From NCBI GenBank assembly GCA_031404695.1, contig JANNIB010000346.1, forward strand, positions 155 to 64,154: a stretch of 64,000 bases of DNA, read 5' to 3'. Position 1 is the stretch's first letter; every line of letters starts with the position of its first letter. The translations under genes and the position numbers were made by a program. The notes beneath the pieces are model-generated. The model saw only the letters and a program-made list of their open reading frames with translations. It did not search any database and was not told where the DNA came from. Positions 27,059-59,032 of this stretch are shown in pieces. Source of the DNA: Acidobacteriota bacterium (lineage in GTDB: Bacteria > Acidobacteriota > Vicinamibacteria > Vicinamibacterales > UBA2999).

Positions 27059-28019
27059 CTTGAGCTCCGCCTCCGGCGAGGAGATACAACACCGCCATCC
27101 GCGCGGCCACGCCGTTGGCCACCTGATCCAGGATCACGGAATAGGGCCCATCGGCAACTTCGCTCGAGATCTCGACGCCGCGGTTGATGGGGCCAGGGTG
27201 CATCACGATGACGTCGGGCTTGGCCCGCGCCAGTCGTGCTTCGGTCATGCCGAACACGGTGAAGTACTCGCGCAGCGACGGGAAGAAACCGCCTTCCATG
27301 CGTTCGAGCTGGATGCGCAGCATCATCACGACGTCGGCGCCTTCGACGGCCGCCTCGACCGACGAGGTGGTCGTCACGCCCATCGCCGCCAGCCCCATCG
27401 GGATGAGCGTGGGTGGCCCGCACACCCACACCTCGGCGCCGAGTTTCGTGAGCAGCAAGACGTTGCTGCGCAGCACGCGGCTGTGCAGCAGGTCGCCGAC
27501 GATGGCCACCTTCAGGCCCGCGATCCGGCCCTTGCGCTCACGGATCGTGAAGGCGTCGAGCAGGGCCTGGGTCGGATGTTCGTGCAGCCCGTCGCCGGCG
27601 TTGATGATCGGCGACTTGCAGATGCGCGCCAGCAGGTGCGGCGCGCCCGACGAGGCGTGCCGGATCACGATCATGCTGGGCCCCATCGCCTCGATGTTCC
27701 GGGCCGTGTCCACCAGCGTCTCGCCCTTGACCACGCTGGAACTGGCGACCGCCACGCCGAGCGTGTCGGCGCTCAGGCGTTTCTCGGCAATCTCGAACGA
27801 CGTGCGCGTGCGCGTGGACGGCTCGAAGAACAGGTTCACGACGGTGCGGCCGCGCAGCGCCGGCACCTTCTTGATCTGGCGCTGCGAGATCTCCTTCATC
27901 GCCTCGGTGGTGTCGAGGATGAGCAGGATCTCCTCGGGCGTCAGCTCGGCGATGCCGAGCAGATCTTTGCCGCGCAGCGCCGTCGCCGGCTGTGCCACTT
28001 CCACGGTGGGCGCCGTCAT
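27042..28019 (-). CDS. pyrB: Aspartate carbamoyltransferase catalytic subunit
   Basis: The blocks [23 protein letters not shown] and [11 protein letters not shown] are present. It overlaps pyrC by 17 nt. Confidence 0.95.
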
Positions 28020-28558
28020 GCTCCCGGCTCGCTTTCCACCGATACCTCATCGGTGCCGTCGGTGTCGCTGAGCCGCACGTGCACGTTCTCGCGTCGTGAG
28101 GTCGGGATGTTCTTGCCGACGTAGTCGGCCTTGATCGGCAGCTCGCGATGCCCGCGGTCCACCAGCACGACCAGCTGGATGGCCTTCGGGCGGCCGAAGT
28201 CGATGAGCGCGTCGAGCGCCGCCCGGGTGGTGCGGCCGGTGTAGAGCACATCGTCCACCAGCACGATCACCCGGTCGTCGAGCGAGAACGGAATCTCGGT
28301 TCGGCGCACCAGCGGCTGCGGCCCGACGGTCTGCCGCATCAAATCGTCGCGGTAGAGCGTGATGTCGAGCGCGCCGACCGGCACGTCGTCGCCGGAAATC
28401 GACTTGAGCGCCGCGGCAATGCGGCGGGCCAGCGGCACGCCGCGCGAGCGGACGCCGATGATGGCCAGGTTCTCGACCCCGCGATTGCGCTCGACGATCT
28501 CGTGCGCGATGCGCACGAGCGCGCGGCTGATGCGGTCGGCATCCATTACGACGGGCAT
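28016..28558 (-). CDS. pyrR: Bifunctional pyrimidine operon regulator / uracil phosphoribosyltransferase PyrR
   Basis: [25 protein letters not shown]...[39 protein letters not shown]. The ATG lies at 28558. Confidence 0.9.
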
Positions 28559-28745
28559 GCGGCCACCTTTCGCCCGGCCGCCGGCATGCGGGGCTCGGGG
28601 CTCGGGACTCGGGGCCCGGGGACATACGCAGCGGGAAGGGTGGAGCGGGCGCAGGACGCGCCTGGGGCGGACGTACGGACCGGCATGGACACCTCTTGGC
28701 GGGCTCGCAGGCCCGCGGTTAAAGAGGGCACCAGTATAGAGCACC
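28559..28745 (-). promoter_or_regulatory. pyrR 5' leader with a candidate promoter (-10 TATACT at 28738-28733) and a candidate PyrR-binding-type hairpin
   Basis: The minus-strand RNA reads GCCCUCUUUAACCGCGGGCCUGCGAGCCCGCCAAGAGGUG. It has a lower stem CCUCUU/AAGAGG, a UAAC bulge and an upper stem CGCGGGC/GCCCGC. The UUUAA...AGAGG layout is reminiscent of PyrR binding loops. CCACCCUUC could pair with the RBS GAAAGGUGG. Confidence 0.35.
28589..28620. repeat. Tandem heptamer G-run repeat (GGGGCTC GGGGCTC GGGACTC GGGGCCC GGGG) in the pyrR leader
   Basis: Read directly from the sequence. Five G-runs are separated by 3-4 nt. The pyrR transcript would carry the C-rich complement. Confidence 0.9.
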
Positions 28746-28761
28746 CGGCGCCCTCGTGTCC

Positions 28762-28913
28762 GGGCTAGGGGCTAGGGGCTAGGGGCTGGGGCTGGGGCGG
28801 GCAATCGTCACGCGGCGAAGTGAAGCACGACAAGCAGGGCTTGTGCATCGCCGCGATGCGGCGATGCGAACTCGTGACGCGGCACACCCCAGCCCCTAGC
28901 CCCCAGCCCCCAG
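28762..28913. repeat. G-run/C-run inverted-repeat element, copy A
   Basis: Left arm GGGCTAGGGGCTAGGGGCTAGGGGCTGGGGCTGGGG (28762-28797). Right arm CCCCAGCCCCTAGCCCCCAGCCCCCAG (28887-28913). The spacer is 89 nt. By hand alignment the arms pair at about 24/26 positions with one bulge. Confidence 0.9.
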
Positions 28914-28916
28914 TTC

Positions 28917-30713
28917 TCAGCGTCCGTACCCGGGAATGAACGTGACCGGCCGGGTCGCCGTGAACGTCGGCGTGAAGAAGTCGGTGCGGGCGCGGCCGTC
29001 CATATCGCGGCCGATCGGGAGGCCGAGGAAATACAGCAGTGTCGGCGCGATATCGGCGATCGACCCGCGCTCCAGGCGGCCCGGCTGCACGGCGGGTCCG
29101 ATCGCCAGGACGAAGCCGTCGGGGGCGCGTTCGTGCGTGCCGCTCAACTGCACGTCGCCGACCAGACGTTCGAGGATGCGCTTCGCGGGCGTCAGCGGCT
29201 CGATGCCGTGACCCGACACCACCAGCACGAGGTCGTCGGGACCGAGCGTGTCGTGGAGGCGACCCACGACTGCATCGAGCACGCCGTAGTAGTCGTCGAG
29301 CACGCTGCCGAAGGTCTCTCGCTCCGCTTCGGAGACGTCGCCGAACTCCTCCGGGGAGGCATAGCGCAGGAAGTAGTGCGCGACGGCGTCGAGCCCCGGC
29401 AGGCGCAGCGCCACGAAGCGCGAGGGACGCGAGGCCTCAATCATCTCGAGCAGCCGCAGATGGAGGCTGTCCGCCTGCACTGGCGCCGGATCGACACGGC
29501 CATCGGCATCGGCGCCGCGCGGCAGGCGTCCGGCGCGGGCGAGCACCTCGTGTGGGTCGGGCGAGAGCGGCATGGACGGGGCCGCCGTGACCGCGGTCCA
29601 GAGCGAGGGTGGCGACACCGCGGCGGCACCGTCGAGCGCGAACCTCGCATCATCGACGCGGTGCAGCACGTCGCTGACGACGTATCCGCGCAGCAGCGGC
29701 GCCGGATGCGTGAGCGGCCAGCCGACCACGCCGACCCGCACGCCTCGGTCGCTGAGAATGCGCCACAGCGGCAACGACGCCATCGATTCCGGCGTGTGCG
29801 GCTCGGCGCGCAGGAAGCCGTAGCGCACCAGCGCCTGCGAGAAGATGTAGTCGGGCAGCACGTCCACGCGCGGTCCGCCTTCGCTGGCGAGGTAGCGCGC
29901 GGCCGACCGGACACCGCTGGTCTGCGGCATGCGCCCGGTGGCCACCGTCGTCCAGATCGGCTCGGCCTGCGTCGGACGCAGCGTGGCCAGATAGGCCGAG
30001 GCGCCGGCGTCGAGCACGCGGCCGAAGTTCGGCAGGCGCCCTTCGGCCACCGCCAGCGTGATGTGGTCGAGCGACGCGCCGTCCACCGCCAGCAACACGA
30101 CGCGGCCTCCGGGCACGTCGGTGGCCGCAACCGGGCGCGCGGAGACCGGCGGCGGCGCGACCGGTCCTGGCGGAGACGAGCCGCGCAGCGTGAGCGGCAC
30201 CACCACCGACAGCGCCATCGTGGTCACCAGCAGCACGCCGCTCGGCGCCGTGCCGCGCCGACCGATGTGCGCCAGCGCCACGATCAGGAAGACGCCGCCG
30301 CAGATGGCCACCGCGACGGCGGCCAGCGTCATCCGCCGCGCCGTGTCGGGATCGAGGAACGGCGCGAAGTCGGCGGCGTTCAGCCACAGCACCGTGGCGC
30401 CGACGGCGGCCGAGATCGTGCACATCCAGGCGAGCACACGGACGCTCAGCCAGCCCGGCGACAGCACCTGCACGGCGGCCACCTGACGCAGCACCACCAG
30501 CGCGTAGAAGACGAGGATCGCGTTGGCGCCGTAGGCGAGACCGAACGCCGCAGCGAGCGGCCCGGCCGCCGACAGCGGGTAGGCCGGGTTCAGGTGCAGC
30601 GTCGCGATAGTGAGATACGCCGACAGCAGCGCGCTCGCAATCGCCGAGTTCGTCAGGACGCGCAGATACCGCACGTCCCGATTAGAACCCGAAACGCCGC
30701 GGCAACGAGTCAC
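28917..30713 (-). CDS. Membrane-anchored alkaline-phosphatase-superfamily protein (type I phosphodiesterase/nucleotide pyrophosphatase-like)
   Basis: About 5 N-terminal TM segments are followed by VVLLAVDGASLDHI, TLRPTQAEPIWTTVATG and LVLVVSGHG. The start is uncertain (ATG at 30713 or GTG at 30674). Confidence 0.7.
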   Translation of the reverse strand: MTRCRGVSGSNRDVRYLRVLTNSAIASALLSAYLTIATLHLNPAYPLSAAGPLAAAFGLAYGANAILVFYALVVLRQVAAVQVLSPGWLSVRVLAWMCTISAAVGATVLWLNAADFAPFLDPDTARRMTLAAVAVAICGGVFLIVALAHIGRRGTAPSGVLLVTTMALSVVVPLTLRGSSPPGPVAPPPVSARPVAATDVPGGRVVLLAVDGASLDHITLAVAEGRLPNFGRVLDAGASAYLATLRPTQAEPIWTTVATGRMPQTSGVRSAARYLASEGGPRVDVLPDYIFSQALVRYGFLRAEPHTPESMASLPLWRILSDRGVRVGVVGWPLTHPAPLLRGYVVSDVLHRVDDARFALDGAAAVSPPSLWTAVTAAPSMPLSPDPHEVLARAGRLPRGADADGRVDPAPVQADSLHLRLLEMIEASRPSRFVALRLPGLDAVAHYFLRYASPEEFGDVSEAERETFGSVLDDYYGVLDAVVGRLHDTLGPDDLVLVVSGHGIEPLTPAKRILERLVGDVQLSGTHERAPDGFVLAIGPAVQPGRLERGSIADIAPTLLYFLGLPIGRDMDGRARTDFFTPTFTATRPVTFIPGYGR

Positions 30714-34593: not shown

Positions 34594-34620
34594 CCCCAGC
34601 CCCCAGCCTCCAGCCCCCAG
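34594..34620. repeat. Solo C-run arm (CCCCAGCCCCCAGCCTCCAGCCCCCAG) just upstream of pyrK
   Basis: Same phased repeat family as 28887-28913 and 42359-42382. I see no complementary G arm within the 135-nt intergenic region. A TATACT hexamer follows at 34626-34631. Confidence 0.85.
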
Positions 34621-34638
34621 GGCGATATACTTTCCCCC

Positions 34639-37163: not shown

Positions 37164-37751
37164 TTACTTCGCGGTGATGACGAAGTGGCCGCGGCGGTTC
37201 TGCTGCCAGCACGCTTCGTTGCTCTCAGAGCAGAAGGGCGTTTCCTTGCCCTTGCTGATGACCGTGATGCTGCTCTCGGGCACGCCGAGGCTGACCAGGT
37301 AGCCCTTCACCGAGTTCGAGCGGCGCTCGCCCAGGCTGAGGTTGTATTCCGCCGTGCCGCGTTCGTCGCAGTGGCCTTCCACCGTGATGCGCAGCGACGG
37401 CCACTTCTTGAGGTAGTCGGCGTTGGCCTGCAGCGGACCGCGGGCATCTTCACGCACGCCGTACATGTCGAGGTCGAAGTAGACGTCGGCGAGCACGCCC
37501 TTGGCATTCAGCCCGGCGACCGACTCCTGCGCCCAGAGTTCGGCTTCCGTCGGCACGCGCGGCGGCGCGGGAGCAGGCGGAGGCGGCGGGGGTGGCGGCG
37601 GTGGGGGTGGCGGCGGCGCGGGCGCTACCGGGGGAGGTGGCGGCGGCGGTGCGGGCGGCGGTACTTTCTTGGCGCACGCCTCAGCGAAGATCACCAGCGC
37701 GAAGCTGCAGATAATCGCAATCGCCGCGTGACGGGATGGCAAACGCATCAT
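37164..37751 (-). CDS. OmpA-family peptidoglycan-binding protein (Pal-like) with a proline-rich linker
   Basis: MMRLPSRHAAIAIICSFALVIFAEAC is followed by about 35 aa of Pro/Ala and an OmpA_C block ITVEGHCDERGTAEYNLSLGERRSNSVKGYL. An AGGAG RBS precedes the ATG at 37751. Confidence 0.85.
   Translation of the reverse strand: MMRLPSRHAAIAIICSFALVIFAEACAKKVPPPAPPPPPPPVAPAPPPPPPPPPPPPPPAPAPPRVPTEAELWAQESVAGLNAKGVLADVYFDLDMYGVREDARGPLQANADYLKKWPSLRITVEGHCDERGTAEYNLSLGERRSNSVKGYLVSLGVPESSITVISKGKETPFCSESNEACWQQNRRGHFVITAK
37557..37661 (-). repeat. Low-complexity CCN/GGN tract encoding a poly-Pro/Ala linker
   Basis: It encodes PPPAPPPPPPPVAPAPPPPPPPPPPPPPPAPAPP. The plus strand shows GGCGG/GGTGG reiterations. 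Confidence 0.9.
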
Positions 37752-42258: not shown

Positions 42259-42382
42259 GCTGGGGACTAGGGGCTGGGGGCTGGGGCGTGCTCCTGTCGC
42301 GCCGGCAAGAAACACGTCTTGCAGGGAGGCGTTCCGGACCGCACGTCTGGCGTGGATGCCCCAGCCCCCAGCACCCAGCCCC
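42259..42382. repeat. G-run/C-run inverted-repeat element, copy B, between convergent genes
   Basis: Left arm GCTGGGGACTAGGGGCTGGGGGCTGGGG (42259-42286). Right arm CCCCAGCCCCCAGCACCCAGCCCC (42359-42382). The spacer is 72 nt. By hand alignment the arms are complementary at 21/24 positions. Confidence 0.9.
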
Positions 42383-52345: not shown

Positions 52346-53901
52346 CGGCCGGCCGGCTCCGCGCCTTCGCGCTCGGAGCCGTGTTTTTCGCCGCCGGCTG
52401 CGCGGCGAAACCGGCTGCCACGTCCGCCACGCCGCCACGGCCCACGGCCGTTGACACGCCACCCGCGGCCATCGCGCCCGCTCCCGCGGCCACGCCGGCC
52501 ACCCGCATCGAGTCGCTGGCCGGGTTCGTGGACGGCGTGCTCGCCTCGTCCACCTTCGATCACGCGACCGTCGCCTTCGTTGCGCGCTCGCTCGCCACAG
52601 GGGAAACGCTCTACAGCCGCAACGGGCGCAGCTGGCTCGTGCCGGCGTCGACAATGAAGGTGCTCACGGCGGTAGCGGCGGCCGAGCGGCTCGGCTGGGG
52701 CTTTCGCTTCGAGACGCGGCTGCTGGCCACCGGGCCGATCGTGAAGGGCGTGCTCGATGGCGACCTGCTGGTCGTGGGCACAGGCGATCCCACCATCAAC
52801 CGCCGCCATCCGAGCCGCGCCGACGCCTTCGACCAGTGGGCCCGCGCCCTCAAAGCCCGCGGCCTCCGGCGGATCAACGGCCATGTCATCGGCGATGACA
52901 GCCTGGTCGAAGCCCCGGGCTGGGGCATCGGCTGGGCCTGGGACGATCTGGTCGAAGAATACGGCGCGGCCGTCACGGCCCTGCAGTACAACGAGAACGT
53001 CGTCACCGTGACGCTGGGGCCGGGCCTCACCCCCGGCGCCCCGCCGGTGGTCTACGTGTCGCCGTCGAACCACGGCCTGCTCCTCGACGTCCAGGCCGTG
53101 ACCTCGGCCCAGGACACGACACCGGCACTGGTGGTCGCGCGGGAACCGGGGACCCGCTTCCTCGAGGTGCGCGGACGGGCGCCCTGGGGCGGCGAGCCGA
53201 TCAGCACCACGGTCGCCGTCGCCAACCCGACGCTGTTCTTCGCCGGCGAGCTGCGGCAGGCGCTCATCCGCCAGGGCATCGCCGTGGACGGCACCGGCGT
53301 GGACATCGACGAGGAGTCCGATCGCGCCCGCGCCTCAGAGGCCACGACGCTGCTGGTCGATCAGTCAGCGCCGCTCAGCGAAATCGCCTCCGAGATGCTG
53401 GCCTGGAGCATCAACCTCTACGCCGAGTCGCTGGTGGTGGCACTCGACCAGACCCCGCCGGCCAGCACCGCTGACGGCGTTACGGCGCTCAAGGCGACGC
53501 TCGACTCGCTCGGCGTGCCGGCCGACGGCTACCTGACGCGCGATGGCTCCGGCCTGTCGAGAAACGACTACCTCTCCGCCGACACGCTGGTCGCGACGCT
53601 CGACGGCGCGTGGCGGCGGCCGGGCCTGCGCGAGGGCCTGCGCGCCGTGCTGCCCGTGACCGGCGGCCCCGGCATGCTCGAGCGGCGCCTCACCGGCACG
53701 CCGGCAGCCGGGCGCGTGCACGCCAAATCGGGCTCGATGTCGAACGTCCGCTCGCTGGCGGGGTTTGTCGAGACCACGGCCGGCGAGCCGCTCGCCTTCG
53801 CGTTCCTGTCGAACGGCTTCCATGTGCGCGGGACCGAGATCGACGAGCGCGTGGACGCGCTGCTGCTGGCGCTGGTTGCGTTGCCCCTCACGCCCCGATG
53901 A
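52342..53901 (+). CDS. dacB: D-alanyl-D-alanine carboxypeptidase/endopeptidase (PBP4, peptidase S13), lipoprotein-like
   Basis: MTAGRLRAFALGAVFFAAGC; the active-site block PASTMKVLT and SGS/KSG-type motifs (GSGLSRND, HAKSGSM) are present. The start overlaps the upstream stop (ATGA). Confidence 0.85.
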   Translation: MTAGRLRAFALGAVFFAAGCAAKPAATSATPPRPTAVDTPPAAIAPAPAATPATRIESLAGFVDGVLASSTFDHATVAFVARSLATGETLYSRNGRSWLVPASTMKVLTAVAAAERLGWGFRFETRLLATGPIVKGVLDGDLLVVGTGDPTINRRHPSRADAFDQWARALKARGLRRINGHVIGDDSLVEAPGWGIGWAWDDLVEEYGAAVTALQYNENVVTVTLGPGLTPGAPPVVYVSPSNHGLLLDVQAVTSAQDTTPALVVAREPGTRFLEVRGRAPWGGEPISTTVAVANPTLFFAGELRQALIRQGIAVDGTGVDIDEESDRARASEATTLLVDQSAPLSEIASEMLAWSINLYAESLVVALDQTPPASTADGVTALKATLDSLGVPADGYLTRDGSGLSRNDYLSADTLVATLDGAWRRPGLREGLRAVLPVTGGPGMLERRLTGTPAAGRVHAKSGSMSNVRSLAGFVETTAGEPLAFAFLSNGFHVRGTEIDERVDALLLALVALPLTPR

Positions 53902-53906
53902 AAAGA

Positions 53907-53935
53907 GGGCCGCCCGTCCACTTGACGGGCGGCCC
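53907..53935 (-). terminator. Rho-independent-type terminator for the minus-strand BNR gene (also a hairpin for dacB)
   Basis: GGGCCGCCCGT-CCACTTG-ACGGGCGGCCC forms an 11-bp stem. On the minus strand it is followed by TCTTTTC. Confidence 0.75.
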
Positions 53936-53960
53936 CGTGATGCCTCGCGCGCCGGCCTGC

Positions 53961-56861
53961 TCAGTGTACCTTGAGCCGCCAGACTCCCTGCCCGTGCGTG
54001 CCGGCATACAGCACCCCGCGCTCGGGCACGTAGACGAGATCCGATACCGTCACGTTGGGCAGGCCCGCCGCCGTACTGTGCCAGACCTGCGAACTCTTCT
54101 GCTTCTGCACGACGCCGAAGTCGTTGCCGACGTAGAGCGTGCCCTTCGGGCTGACGATCACCGATGTGGCCGGAATGTCGCCGAACCCGTTGATCTTGTG
54201 TCCGTCCAGGTTCGTGAAGGTCACCGCGCCAGTGGCCGGGACGTAGCGCACCTCGAAGACGTGGCCCGGCGTGGCCGGCGTCTTCACGTTGAAGCCGCTG
54301 TAGGTGATCCACGCATGGTTCGCGTCCTCCGGATCCACGAAGATCGAGGTCGGATAGCGCGGCGGGTCGTTGGCGGCGCGGCTGTCGAGGCGCGTGAACG
54401 CGACGCTCGCCGGCACCAGCGCGTCGGCGTTCTTCGACACGAACACGCGTCCGAGGCTGGTCGCGACCCACAGGGTGGATGAGTCGCTCTTCGCGCGTTC
54501 CACCACCGACACGCTGCCGCCGGCGCGATCGCCCCACACGGGCGCGCTCAGGCGGCCGTTCGCGCCGGGATCGCCCAGTGGCTTGAAGTCGTCGCAGATA
54601 TCGGTTGCCGGTTCGTAGATGCCGTTGCCGTCGATGTCACCAGAGCCCGTCCACACGTTGCAGGCTGCCAGCACATCAGCCCTCGGAAACAGGGGATTGA
54701 GGCCGTGGTTGCCAGCGCGGAAGACGTGCTCGCGTCCGTGCCAGAGCTGTCCGGGCACGACCGGATCGGTGATCGCGTTGCCGATGAACGGTACGAGTTC
54801 GTTGCCGTAGAAGACGAACATGGTGTCCGACACCCACGTGACGTCGGTCTGGTTCTGCGGGGTGAAGCTCACTTCCAGCTGGCCCTGCTGCCAGGCGGTC
54901 ATGCGGAACGCCGGGTTCCCGCCGAGGGCGTCGTAGGCGTTGTGGCCGCCGTCGGCGATGTTGGTGTTGAGCCACGTGTCGCCGCCCACCGTCTCCCAGG
55001 ACCCGTTGTCCTGCGTGCCACCGGTGATGATGTCGGGATTCGCCTTGTTGTATTCGATCTGGTAGAAGTGCAGCGTCCGAAGGCCCTTGTTGATGGGTTC
55101 GAGCCGCTCGGGGATGCGCGCGAGCACCAGGCGGCAGAACGCCAGCCGCGCCGCATTGGTGATGCCCTTGACCGCGTCGCAATCGCCGGAATCGTCGACG
55201 AAGTTCCCGTTCGAGCGGATGATGCCGCCGTCGCCCAGGTCGAAGAACTGCTGCCAGTTGCCGGGGTTGGTCACGAGGGCGTGGTGATCGGGATGCGCCT
55301 GCACCGGATACACGTTGTCCGATGCGTCCTCGGTCATGTCCGTGAAGTGCACGCCGGCGTTGGTGGACAGAAGGATGCCCCGGCCGTTCGATCGCCCCGA
55401 GACGTTGTTGTTCTCGTTGTATTCGTAGTCGCCAAGCAGGTAGACCGTGTCGGGGCCCGCGCCGGGAGGCACGTAGACATCGTTGTCGTAGCTGCACTGG
55501 CCGTCACAGTAACCGAAGCTGGAATAGCCAGCGGGGTTCGTCGACACATTGGAGCTGGTCAAGTCGATCCAGCCGGCCAGCGCCGTCGCGGCCGAAGTCA
55601 GGCGCACCGCGTCGTTGCGACGGAAGCGCGCGAAGAGACCGCCGCCCCCCACACCCACGTACATACGCGTTTCGGTGCCGAGCTGCACCACGTCGAACTC
55701 CGCACGCTCGGCCGTGCCCGATCCCAGGAGGGGCATGATCCGCTCCCAGGTGTTGCCGAGATCGCGCGAGCGCCAGATGCCGCGCGACAGGAACGAGACG
55801 TAGACCGTGTTCGGGTCCACGGGATCGAACATCACGCGACGGGCGCCGCGCGGCGCGCACGGGGTCAGATTCAGCGCCACTTGGTCCGGCGTCGACGCCG
55901 TGCACAGCGCCGGCGCGCCCTGGGTGACCAGCTGCCAGTTGCTGCCGCCATCGACCGAGCGATACAAGCCGAAGTGTGGGGCGCCAGGAATCAGCGCATC
56001 GACGCCGCCGCAGCACGTGTTCGAGACACCCAGGACACCGCGGCCCGAGGCCGCGAAGACGACATCGGGATTGCCCGGTTGCACCGCAATCGAGCCCACG
56101 GCCCGACCGGCAAACTGCGCGCTGCCGATGGGACCCTTCCACGACTTGCCGCCGTTGTTGCTCTTGTAGAGACCAACACCCGCCGTGCATCCGCTGCCGC
56201 ACGCGTTCGGTTCGCCCGTGCCGGCCCACAATGTGTCGGCGGACGGGTCGTTCGGGTCGAGGATGATCTCGGCCACGTTGTTGTGTTCGAAGGTGTGGGA
56301 CTGGAACTCCCAGGCCGGCTCGGCGGCCAGCGCATCGCGCGTCATCCACACCCCGCCGTTGGCGTTGGCCAGCCACAGACGGCAGTTGCCGACGACGCAG
56401 TTGGGATCGATGGCGGCCGCAATGGAGCGGCCGCTGAAGTTGTCGGTTCCCGCGTTGTAGACCGTGCGATCTCTGAACGGATTGTCGGCGCCCTTTCCGT
56501 AGACCGGGCCAAGGGGCGTCCACGCGCCGCCGCCAACGGCCGGCCGCGCCTTCAGTCCGAGCCAGGCGCCGCGCGCCCCGGCGAAGGCAGCGTACGGGAT
56601 GTCGGTGCCCGGCGTGGCGTGCTCGAGCCAGTCTTGCGCGCCCGTGCCGCCCGCAGCCTCTTCGAGCAGCGTGGCCGCACCCGGCGAGAACGTGGCCATG
56701 GCCGCGAACTTCGTGGCCAGGCCGACTGGAAGTTTCTTCAGTCGTCCGGTCTCGGGTGCCTGGACGGAAGACTCAATGGGCCCGGGACGAGAAGTGGCGA
56801 GTGGCGAGATCAACGCCGCCACGGCGAGAGTCAGGGCGCCGAGGTACAACCGTTTTCTCAT
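53961..56861 (-). CDS. Large secreted BNR/Asp-box repeat protein (sialidase/xyloglucanase/Vps10-like beta-propellers)
   Basis: Signal peptide MRKRLYLGALTLAVAALISPLA. Asp-box-like motifs are present: YKSNNGGKSWKG, YRSVDGGSNWQL, WRSRDLGNTWERI and LSTNAGVHF. Confidence 0.8.
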   Translation of the reverse strand: MRKRLYLGALTLAVAALISPLATSRPGPIESSVQAPETGRLKKLPVGLATKFAAMATFSPGAATLLEEAAGGTGAQDWLEHATPGTDIPYAAFAGARGAWLGLKARPAVGGGAWTPLGPVYGKGADNPFRDRTVYNAGTDNFSGRSIAAAIDPNCVVGNCRLWLANANGGVWMTRDALAAEPAWEFQSHTFEHNNVAEIILDPNDPSADTLWAGTGEPNACGSGCTAGVGLYKSNNGGKSWKGPIGSAQFAGRAVGSIAVQPGNPDVVFAASGRGVLGVSNTCCGGVDALIPGAPHFGLYRSVDGGSNWQLVTQGAPALCTASTPDQVALNLTPCAPRGARRVMFDPVDPNTVYVSFLSRGIWRSRDLGNTWERIMPLLGSGTAERAEFDVVQLGTETRMYVGVGGGGLFARFRRNDAVRLTSAATALAGWIDLTSSNVSTNPAGYSSFGYCDGQCSYDNDVYVPPGAGPDTVYLLGDYEYNENNNVSGRSNGRGILLSTNAGVHFTDMTEDASDNVYPVQAHPDHHALVTNPGNWQQFFDLGDGGIIRSNGNFVDDSGDCDAVKGITNAARLAFCRLVLARIPERLEPINKGLRTLHFYQIEYNKANPDIITGGTQDNGSWETVGGDTWLNTNIADGGHNAYDALGGNPAFRMTAWQQGQLEVSFTPQNQTDVTWVSDTMFVFYGNELVPFIGNAITDPVVPGQLWHGREHVFRAGNHGLNPLFPRADVLAACNVWTGSGDIDGNGIYEPATDICDDFKPLGDPGANGRLSAPVWGDRAGGSVSVVERAKSDSSTLWVATSLGRVFVSKNADALVPASVAFTRLDSRAANDPPRYPTSIFVDPEDANHAWITYSGFNVKTPATPGHVFEVRYVPATGAVTFTNLDGHKINGFGDIPATSVIVSPKGTLYVGNDFGVVQKQKSSQVWHSTAAGLPNVTVSDLVYVPERGVLYAGTHGQGVWRLKVH

Positions 56862-58999: not shown

Positions 59000-59002
59000 G
59001 CG

Positions 59003-59032
59003 GGCCTCGGGGCTCGGGGCTTGGGGTTTGGA
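59003..59032. repeat. G-run tract GGGCCTCGGGGCTCGGGGCTTGGGGTTTGG immediately after the SDR stop
   Basis: Four G-runs of 3-4 nt separated by 3-4 nt, with the same GGGGCT phasing as the other intergenic repeats. Confidence 0.85.

Follow-up and report, generated by a model that had tools for sequence, protein, structure and literature searches.

Among the features of bacterial intergenic DNA that still lack an explanation, tandem-heptamer repeats are some of the most abundant. One conspicuous case lies upstream of pyrR in the window, by which we mean the whole 64-kb stretch of Acidobacteriota DNA analysed here: a G-run array and a complementary C-run array face each other across a spacer (element A), and a further array stands closer to the gene. 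What are these tracts, how did they arise, and do they have any special tie to pyrimidine metabolism?

The pyrR gene (28016-28558, minus strand, PF00156) is preceded on the same strand by a type I phosphodiesterase gene (585-598 aa, PF01663), whose stop codon occupies 28917-28919. The 358 nt between this stop codon and the pyrR start at 28558 form one of the larger intergenic gaps of the window. Tandem Repeats Finder detects three period-7 arrays in the gap, namely CGGGGCT in 4.7 copies at 28589-28621, the G-run array of element A in 5.6 copies at 28762-28798, and its C-run array, CCCCAGC in 3.9 copies, at 28887-28913. These are the three tracts that an earlier note, made from the letters alone, had picked out at the same positions, and its figures of 358 nt for the gap and 89 nt for the spacer hold by coordinates. 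Read on the plus strand, element A spans 152 nt and consists of the arm (GGGGCTA)3(GGGGCT)2GGGG at 28762-28797, which includes two hexamer units, the 89-nt spacer at 28798-28886, and the arm CCCCAGCCCCTAGCCCCCAGCCCCCAG at 28887-28913. In the transcript of the upstream gene, 28887-28913 is the 5', G-rich arm, beginning 3 nt past the stop codon, and 28762-28797 is the 3', C-rich arm. The order in the direction of the genes is stop codon, 3 nt, G arm (27 nt), spacer (89 nt), C arm (36 nt), 23 nt, TATACT, a conserved leader, (CCCCGAG)x4.7, 30 nt with the ribosome-binding site, and pyrR.

The long hairpin that had been proposed from the pairing of the two arms is borne out by folding. RNA of 28740-28925 is predicted to fold at -120 kcal/mol with an outer stem of 16+12 pairs and one bulge (~28 bp), against a mean of -86.6 for shuffled sequences (z = -7.8; 0 of 200 shuffles fold as well). 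Within the spacer, an inner stem pairs ~28806-28817 with 28871-28883 and lengthens the palindrome, and two small hairpins form at 28830-28844 and 28845-28867 (GCATCGCCGC-GAT-GCGGCGATGC). Element A and a second hairpin, element B, rank as the two best inverted repeats of the whole window, and neither spacer (89 nt in A, 72 nt in B) contains an open reading frame. No T run follows hairpin A or B in the sequence, so both lack the U tract of a canonical intrinsic terminator, and a consensus terminator scan found no terminator-like site over 28000-29300. Rfam matches to the long hairpins (mir-636, VA RNA) were set aside as chance only.

The element had also been described as adjoining the presumed pyrR promoter, and a promoter scan agrees, placing CGGACA-18-TATACT beside element A. 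The -10 box TATACT (28733-28738, minus strand) and a conserved leader hairpin (28692-28726, minus strand) both lie outside the repeat, and the region that they make up (28692-28738) is kept in seven relatives, with one covarying pair (GC/CG/AU/GU). The GGGGCTC array does not belong to the promoter. Since pyrR runs from 28016 to 28558, and the ATG at 28625 is in a different frame and is not its start, this solo array (about 28589-28623, minus strand, (CCCCGAG)x4.7 on the sense strand) must lie in the pyrR 5' leader, where it ends 30 nt upstream of the ATG. Its G-rich strand is the non-coding strand, and the RNA reads CCCCGAG. A metatranscriptome contig from a relative ~91% identical spans 28402-28726, up to the predicted start site; the two metatranscriptomes hold only relatives' fragments, whose contigs cover the pyrR leader and none of which reaches element A. 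The Rfam PyrR family, which describes the PyrR-binding attenuator, gave no match at E<=1 over 27900-29300 or at E<=10 over 28530-28760. For pyr regulation the leader hairpin is a better candidate than the repeat, and the large gap before pyrR is best annotated as a dispensable repeat plus a conserved leader hairpin.

Element A is one of several related sites. With at most one mismatch, GGGGCTNGGGGCT occurs 17 times in the 64-kb window, where dinucleotide-preserving shuffles (n=100) give 0.60 and none attained 17, and 16 of the 17 occurrences fall at five intergenic sites: 28589-28621, 28762-28913, 34594-34620, 42259-42382 and 59001-59031. Because ~87-91% of the window is coding, an intergenic position for all five has p ~1e-4 to 1e-5. 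All seven arrays at these sites have period 7 and 3.4-5.6 copies in Tandem Repeats Finder; they comprise 3-6 units of 7 (sometimes 6) nt and lie 2-30 nt from a gene end. The solo array at 34594-34620 (CCCCAGC-type, x3.9, plus-strand reading) stands 18 nt upstream of the GTG of a pyrK-like gene (34639) and adjoins a TATACT box at 34626-34631. Element B (42259-42382), with a G-run arm at 42259-42286, the 72-nt spacer and a C-run arm at 42359-42382, occupies the convergent gap between the stop of a REC-PilZ gene (42253) and that of a P1B-ATPase gene (42386), and its RNA fold reaches -89.3 kcal/mol (z -4.6). The solo GGGGCTC-type array at 59001-59031 (plus strand) begins 2 nt past the stop of an SDR gene, with its G-rich strand on the coding strand. 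A strand rule holds at all five sites, the G-rich strand being directed away from the nearest gene: it is non-coding in the arrays upstream of genes (30 and 18 nt away) and coding in those after stops (3, 6, 3 and 2 nt away). The earlier note had set two outcomes against its own proposal, equal density of such tracts in coding DNA and a lack of other copies. The tracts prove confined to intergenic DNA in the window and the family has further copies, so neither outcome was found. Extended to a whole genome, this density of five sites in 64 kb would amount to some hundreds.

Could such tracts merely reflect a G+C content of 70%, or faulty assembly? The genome was assembled from a metagenome, and Logan contigs end at the arms of element A. 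The shuffles and independent assemblies nevertheless already refute this explanation, to which we give next to no credence: the excess of matches and their intergenic position argue against composition, comparable elements occur in a relative with a long contig, and contigs of independent samples support the assembly exactly or nearly so. The spacer of element B is found, single-copy, at 100% identity in three metagenomes, and a contig of a fourth sample spans 28788-29192 (the spacer, C arm and flank of A) at ~97% identity.

The remark that nothing in standard annotation explains the element is true of annotation pipelines, but the class to which it belongs has already been published (PMC4692102, PMC2700814). 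Rehm et al. 2015 described G-rich heptamers, GGGAATC in Xanthomonas and GGGGA(C/T)T in Nostoc, that are spread genome-wide, over-represented in non-coding DNA and present preferably in ~4 units (PMC4692102). Their G-rich strand is non-coding just upstream of genes and coding just after stops, some form inverted pairs able to make stem-loops, and they are transcribed; G-quadruplexes (G4) and i-motifs form in vitro (PMC4692102). Heptamer length and sequence differ between close relatives, and no functional class of neighbouring genes is prominent; flanking regions are more stable, and positions are mostly common to two species (PMC4692102). The same paper cites three tandemly repeated heptanucleotides in Calothrix PCC7601 (PMC4692102). 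Elements A and B and the three solo arrays are further members of this intergenic tandem-heptamer class, with the unit GGGGCTN. They share its 7-nt unit with a G3-4 run, the ~4 units, the non-coding bias, the strand rule, the inverted pairs, the variation among close relatives and the lack of a prominent functional class among neighbouring genes; they differ in the unit GGGGCTN, in their occurrence in Acidobacteriota, and in that six of six sites differ at ~95% identity.

Heterocystous cyanobacteria also carry short tandemly repeated repetitive (STRR) heptanucleotides. These resemble the window arrays as intergenic tandem heptamers, often based on G runs (CCCCAGT-like), and differ from them in phylum and unit; to our knowledge, hairpin pairing and turnover have never been characterised for STRR sequences. 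A closer likeness is found in Geobacter metallireducens, whose 'putative global regulator binding sites' are paired tandem repeats of 7-9 nt on opposite strands, with 3-5 tandem units per site and GGGACCG x4 at 49 places (PMC2700814). Those sites, too, are mostly inverted pairs at variable distance and number tens of copies per genome, but they were interpreted as sites for protein binding, and some of the copies are intragenic. We know of no protein partner for either the Geobacter sites or the GGGGCTN arrays. REP, BIME and REPIN sequences are abundant intergenic palindromes after genes that can stabilise or end transcripts and are associated with RAYT transposases. Each REP family has one conserved palindrome and a RAYT gene, whereas the window arms are tandem repeats whose units differ between sites and between relatives.

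A scan of genome contigs for GGGGCTNGGGGCTNGGGG returned at least 119 loci from many phyla. Among the matches listed, GGGGCTN arrays or hairpins occur in Vicinamibacterales, including loci with CCCCGAG/GGGGCTC arrays like those of the window, and in other Acidobacteriota, Gemmatimonadota, Planctomycetota and Xanthomonadaceae, and the matches listed include cyanobacterial loci too. Hairpin pairs, again among the matches listed, are present in Thermoanaerobaculia, Gemmatimonadota, Pirellulales, Pseudoxanthomonas, Roseiflexaceae and others. The loci retrieved contain 21 inverted heptamer pairs whose gap is 400 nt or less, and in every one of them the G-richer arm comes first, whichever strand is read. 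Because the search pattern treated both strands alike, the bias is no sampling effect. This G-first rule, which the present locus study adds, is the strand rule of the literature as it appears in pairs.

How stable are these elements over time? The closest relative, reached via an identical PyrR protein, is represented by a 740-kb contig (ena:ERZ25039524:contig_714), whose loci L240 and L242-L244 align to 19284-59803 of the window (~40 kb) at 94-98% identity, with a drop to ~90-91% in about the final 5.5 kb. Six sites can be compared between the window and this 94-98% identical relative, and none of them is the same. In the pyrR leader, CCCCGAG x4.7 is replaced by TCCCTGR x4.5 of equal length; at element A, the 152-nt hairpin with GGGGCTN arms corresponds to a hairpin with GGCGGCT-type arms and an unrelated 46-nt spacer; and at pyrK, the solo array of the window has as its counterpart a hairpin made of a G arm and a C arm with an 18-nt gap. 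The site of element B is a 42-nt gap with four G runs in the relative; the 21 nt after a penicillin-amidase gene in the window correspond to a full hairpin with an 88-nt spacer; and the array at 59001 has no counterpart in the relative, whose two genes lie almost end to end there.

The junction between the phosphodiesterase stop codon and TATACT was followed further in phosphodiesterase orthologues at graded distance (98-86% protein identity; about seven further distances). The 152-nt hairpin of the window gives way to a hairpin of about 100 nt in the 98% relative, to about 40 nt with (GGGGCT)2-3 on one side and CCAGCC on the other at 92%, to 24 nt with a 5-bp hairpin at 91%, to a solo (GGGAACA)2-3 at 89%, to 49 G+C-rich nt at 87%, and to a 14-nt perfect palindrome at 86%. 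At one junction we thus have a natural series whose ends are a 14-nt palindrome and a 152-nt hairpin, among relatives at 86-98% flanking-protein identity, from which it follows that the large element is recent and dispensable. Small palindromes or G-run seeds are common behind the stop at this junction, and a conserved role there is not supported, since the content ranges over this whole series. The same arrays also follow REC-PilZ, P1B-ATPase and SDR genes, so that a special tie to pyrR is not supported either. Most relatives do without the large hairpin, so it is not needed at the pyrR junction, and an element that close relatives gain, resize and lose is no dedicated pyrR regulator. Element A is not a pyrimidine-specific control element.

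The leader array behaves in a similar manner. Its two allele types, CCCCGAG with a AAAGGTGG-type ribosome-binding site (CAGGAGG in the CCCCGAG-type allele of the 92% relative) and TCCCTGR with a GAGGAGG site, vary in unit number (4.7, 4.7 and 2 for the former; 4.5 and 3.5 for the latter), with 2 units in the relative at 91%. The relatives at 87% and 86% have no leader array. Because the distribution of the two alleles is out of step with relatedness, unit number varies and two relatives lack the array, slippage plus recombination is indicated. An in-place concerted change from CCCCGAG to TCCCTGR was considered and rejected, given that the two alleles extend into the ribosome-binding region and are distributed without regard to relatedness.

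The arms might instead matter as DNA or RNA switches. All arms contain 3-4 or more G or C runs and fit the G3+N1-7 x4 pattern, as the earlier note had pointed out, and predicted G4Hunter scores reach |2.2-2.5| for the arms of A and B (2.33 for 28762-28797 and -2.52 for 28887-28913) and 1.6-1.7 for the two GGGGCTC arrays. Quadruplexes or i-motifs could then act on the pyrR and pyrK promoters or leaders, for example by CTP-dependent pausing in the C-run leader or structure-dependent promoter activity. The in vitro behaviour of the related heptamers (Rehm 2015, PMC4692102), the C-run array on the sense strand beside a TATACT box in both pyr operons, and the C3-4 runs kept every 7 nt in both leader allele types are all in keeping with such a role. 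We nonetheless hold it to be highly doubtful. The same arrays follow unrelated genes, and sense-strand C runs upstream of genes are a class-wide rule rather than a pyr-specific one (PMC4692102); moreover, promoter, leader hairpin and pyrR are all kept in the relatives whose leader array is absent or reduced to 2 units. The closest relative separates the two properties at the A site. Its arms there (GGCGGCT/AGCCGCC) have two G3+ tracts, no C3+ tract and G4Hunter values of 1.06 and -0.40, yet they still pair into a hairpin whose outer stem has 16 bp (-66 kcal/mol, z -3.1). The quadruplex and i-motif part of the original proposal therefore stands as a pattern in the window arms, but the potential is lost in the closest relative, and what recurs at this site is pairing, not G4 or i-motif potential. 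With G runs lost and pairing kept, this is one case in which the hairpin and quadruplex hypotheses come apart.

The reading that we prefer, with a probability of roughly 0.6, is that these are fast-turnover hairpins built by slippage, seeded on small palindromes after stop codons, whose RNA stems act as 3'-end or processing signals. Growth would start from small palindromes or G-run seeds right after stop codons, and slipped-strand mispairing in a 7-nt register would lengthen the arms one unit at a time. The two arms would remain complementary because only paired arms give a stable structure. Whole elements may also be lost, or exchanged by recombination, and with turnover this rapid, genomes ~95% identical would share no site in the same state. 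Once transcribed 3' of the upstream gene, the G arm would emerge first and then pair with the C arm into a stem of ~25-28 bp that could take many registers. A structure of this kind would block 3' exonucleases or insulate the next promoter, and it would be long enough to be a putative substrate of RNase III, by analogy with the heptamer-bearing stems of 23S rRNA intervening sequences (IVSs). Several observations count against this mechanism. The missing U tract after the hairpins, the empty terminator scan and metatranscriptome contigs that stop short of element A weaken it; the G-first bias (21/21) goes beyond simple slippage and hairpin stability and is not explained by it; and a multi-copy core within element A fits copying or mobility better than purely local growth.

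Each metagenome contains 3-4 further contigs with a copy of that core (28828-28883) at ~93% identity; the flanks of these copies differ, and they again lie between G-run and C-run arrays. At the arms of A, the summed depth of Logan contigs is 10-50 times that of the flanks. Element A may accordingly have been inserted rather than grown in place, as one of a set of non-autonomous mobile or copied elements, either MITE- or REPIN-like or gene-less derivatives of a gene-bearing cassette. Presence/absence differences at three sites between genomes ~95% identical point the same way, as does a gene-bearing locus in a Ramlibacter MAG (L069), in which (TAGGGGC)5 and (CCCTAGC)3-4 arms exactly bracket a 125-aa PF05635 gene (E = 5.5e-38). 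We still regard this account as unlikely. No target-site duplication is present at any filled/empty pair and no direct repeats surround B or the relative's penicillin-amidase element; clean empty sites are lacking as well, the 'empty' counterparts holding G runs or mini-palindromes of their own and no clean joints. In addition, no homology links the spacers of the 16 hairpins compared, namely A, B, those of the relative and 12 from other taxa, and a regular-expression search for an IVS-protein-like open reading frame (NIAEG-type motif) found none in the window or in the relative's loci. Set against the multi-copy core of A, the single-copy spacer of B and these unrelated spacers indicate that copying of some elements is likely but is not the general rule. 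A scan of metagenome contigs for GCATCGCCGC-N3-4-GCGGCGATGC was dropped as a tracer of the spacer, the pattern being generic (coding sequence, unrelated REP-like hairpins); one locus alone (L138) seems related.

The PF05635 gene of the Ramlibacter locus is of the four-helix-bundle type (23S rRNA IVS/S23p, Avd-like), and the form with full arms and such a gene was found there only. In the 23S rRNA IVS of Coxiella burnetii, which carries an S23p (PF05635) gene, tandem heptamers that vary in number between strains lie in a terminal stem of 28 bp; this IVS is excised, its stem being cut by RNase III (PMC4990558). The likeness lies in the long heptamer-bearing stem and in the GGGGCTA-type arms around a PF05635 gene in Ramlibacter; element A differs in being gene-less and outside rRNA, and its cleavage by RNase III would follow by analogy. 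As A has no gene and the motif search gave no candidate, the link to IVSs is one of analogy, not membership. A bolder version, in which hairpins like A are the gene-less form of a selfish intervening-sequence cassette whose arms are built or copied by a dedicated process with a 7-nt register, seems to us quite unlikely. The Ramlibacter arms, the heptamers of the Coxiella IVS and the G-first order in 21 of 21 pairs are its pointers. The element would be tolerated anywhere in a transcript because RNase III removes the RNA copy, and if true, this version would supply the mechanism that these repeats have lacked since 1990.

As to provenance, the host is probably a member of the Vicinamibacterales (Acidobacteriota) from sediment: the window matches freshwater-sediment metagenomes, and phosphodiesterase homologues at 74-86% identity are, by their source names, Acidobacteria or Vicinamibacterales MAG proteins.

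For pyr regulation, a conserved hairpin in the pyrR leader is a better candidate than the heptamer repeats, the intergenic tandem GGGGCTN-type arrays of the window. This hairpin lies on the minus strand at 28692-28726, just downstream of a TATACT motif (28733-28738), and reads CUCUUUAA-N-CGCGGGC-CUGCGA-GCCCGC-C-AAGAG. All seven relatives examined carry it, with covariation at one stem pair (GC/CG/AU/GU) and a hexaloop of the form C-N-G-Y-G-A, and it resembles the PyrR binding loop. The Rfam PyrR model gave no match in the leader region, either at E<=1 over 27900-29300 or at E<=10 over 28530-28760. The true PyrR frame is 28016-28558 (minus strand); a 192-aa ATG-initiated open reading frame overlapping it (28047-28625, minus strand) was rejected, being in the wrong frame and having no Pfam hit.

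The 3' part of the leader occurs as two allele types, as seen at 28559-28640 and in the equivalent stretch of the comparison loci L240, L245, L246 and L249. One type combines CCCCGAG units with a AAAGGTGG-type ribosome-binding site, which reads CAGGAGG in L249, a relative with 92% flanking-protein identity, and in the other the units are TCCCTGR and the site is GAGGAGG. Because the distribution of these types among relatives is out of step with flanking-gene identity, it suggests that recombination within the population lies behind them.

In all inverted tandem-heptamer pairs (21/21), drawn from loci L010-L116, L242 and the window and covering several phyla, the G-richer arm is 5' on both strands. 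The same order holds for units without G runs, such as AAAGTGA, CAGAGTT and ATTGGTG. In a Ramlibacter sp. metagenome-assembled genome (L069, 2953-3380), (TAGGGGC)5 and (CCCTAGC)3-4 arms exactly flank a gene for a 125-aa 23S rRNA intervening-sequence protein (PF05635, E = 5.5e-38), and the stem formed by the arms reaches 9 bp into the ends of this gene. In element A, the heptamer hairpin upstream of pyrR (28762-28913), the centre of the 89-nt spacer is itself a hairpin, GCATCGCCGC-N3-4-GCGGCGATGC. Soil metagenomes contain at least two further families of intergenic multi-hairpin repeats with this hairpin as their core (L131, L136, L180, L226 and L235; L139, L159, L160 and L170).

Elsewhere in the window, a G-rich period-15 repeat (GGCGGCGGGGGTGGC) lies at 37559-37661, and only this repeat and the heptamer arms reach a G4Hunter score of at least 1.8. 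Where the peptidase S13 gene region ends, about 420 nt in the window (53888-54308) correspond to 38 nt in a related genome (L244, 15274-15311).
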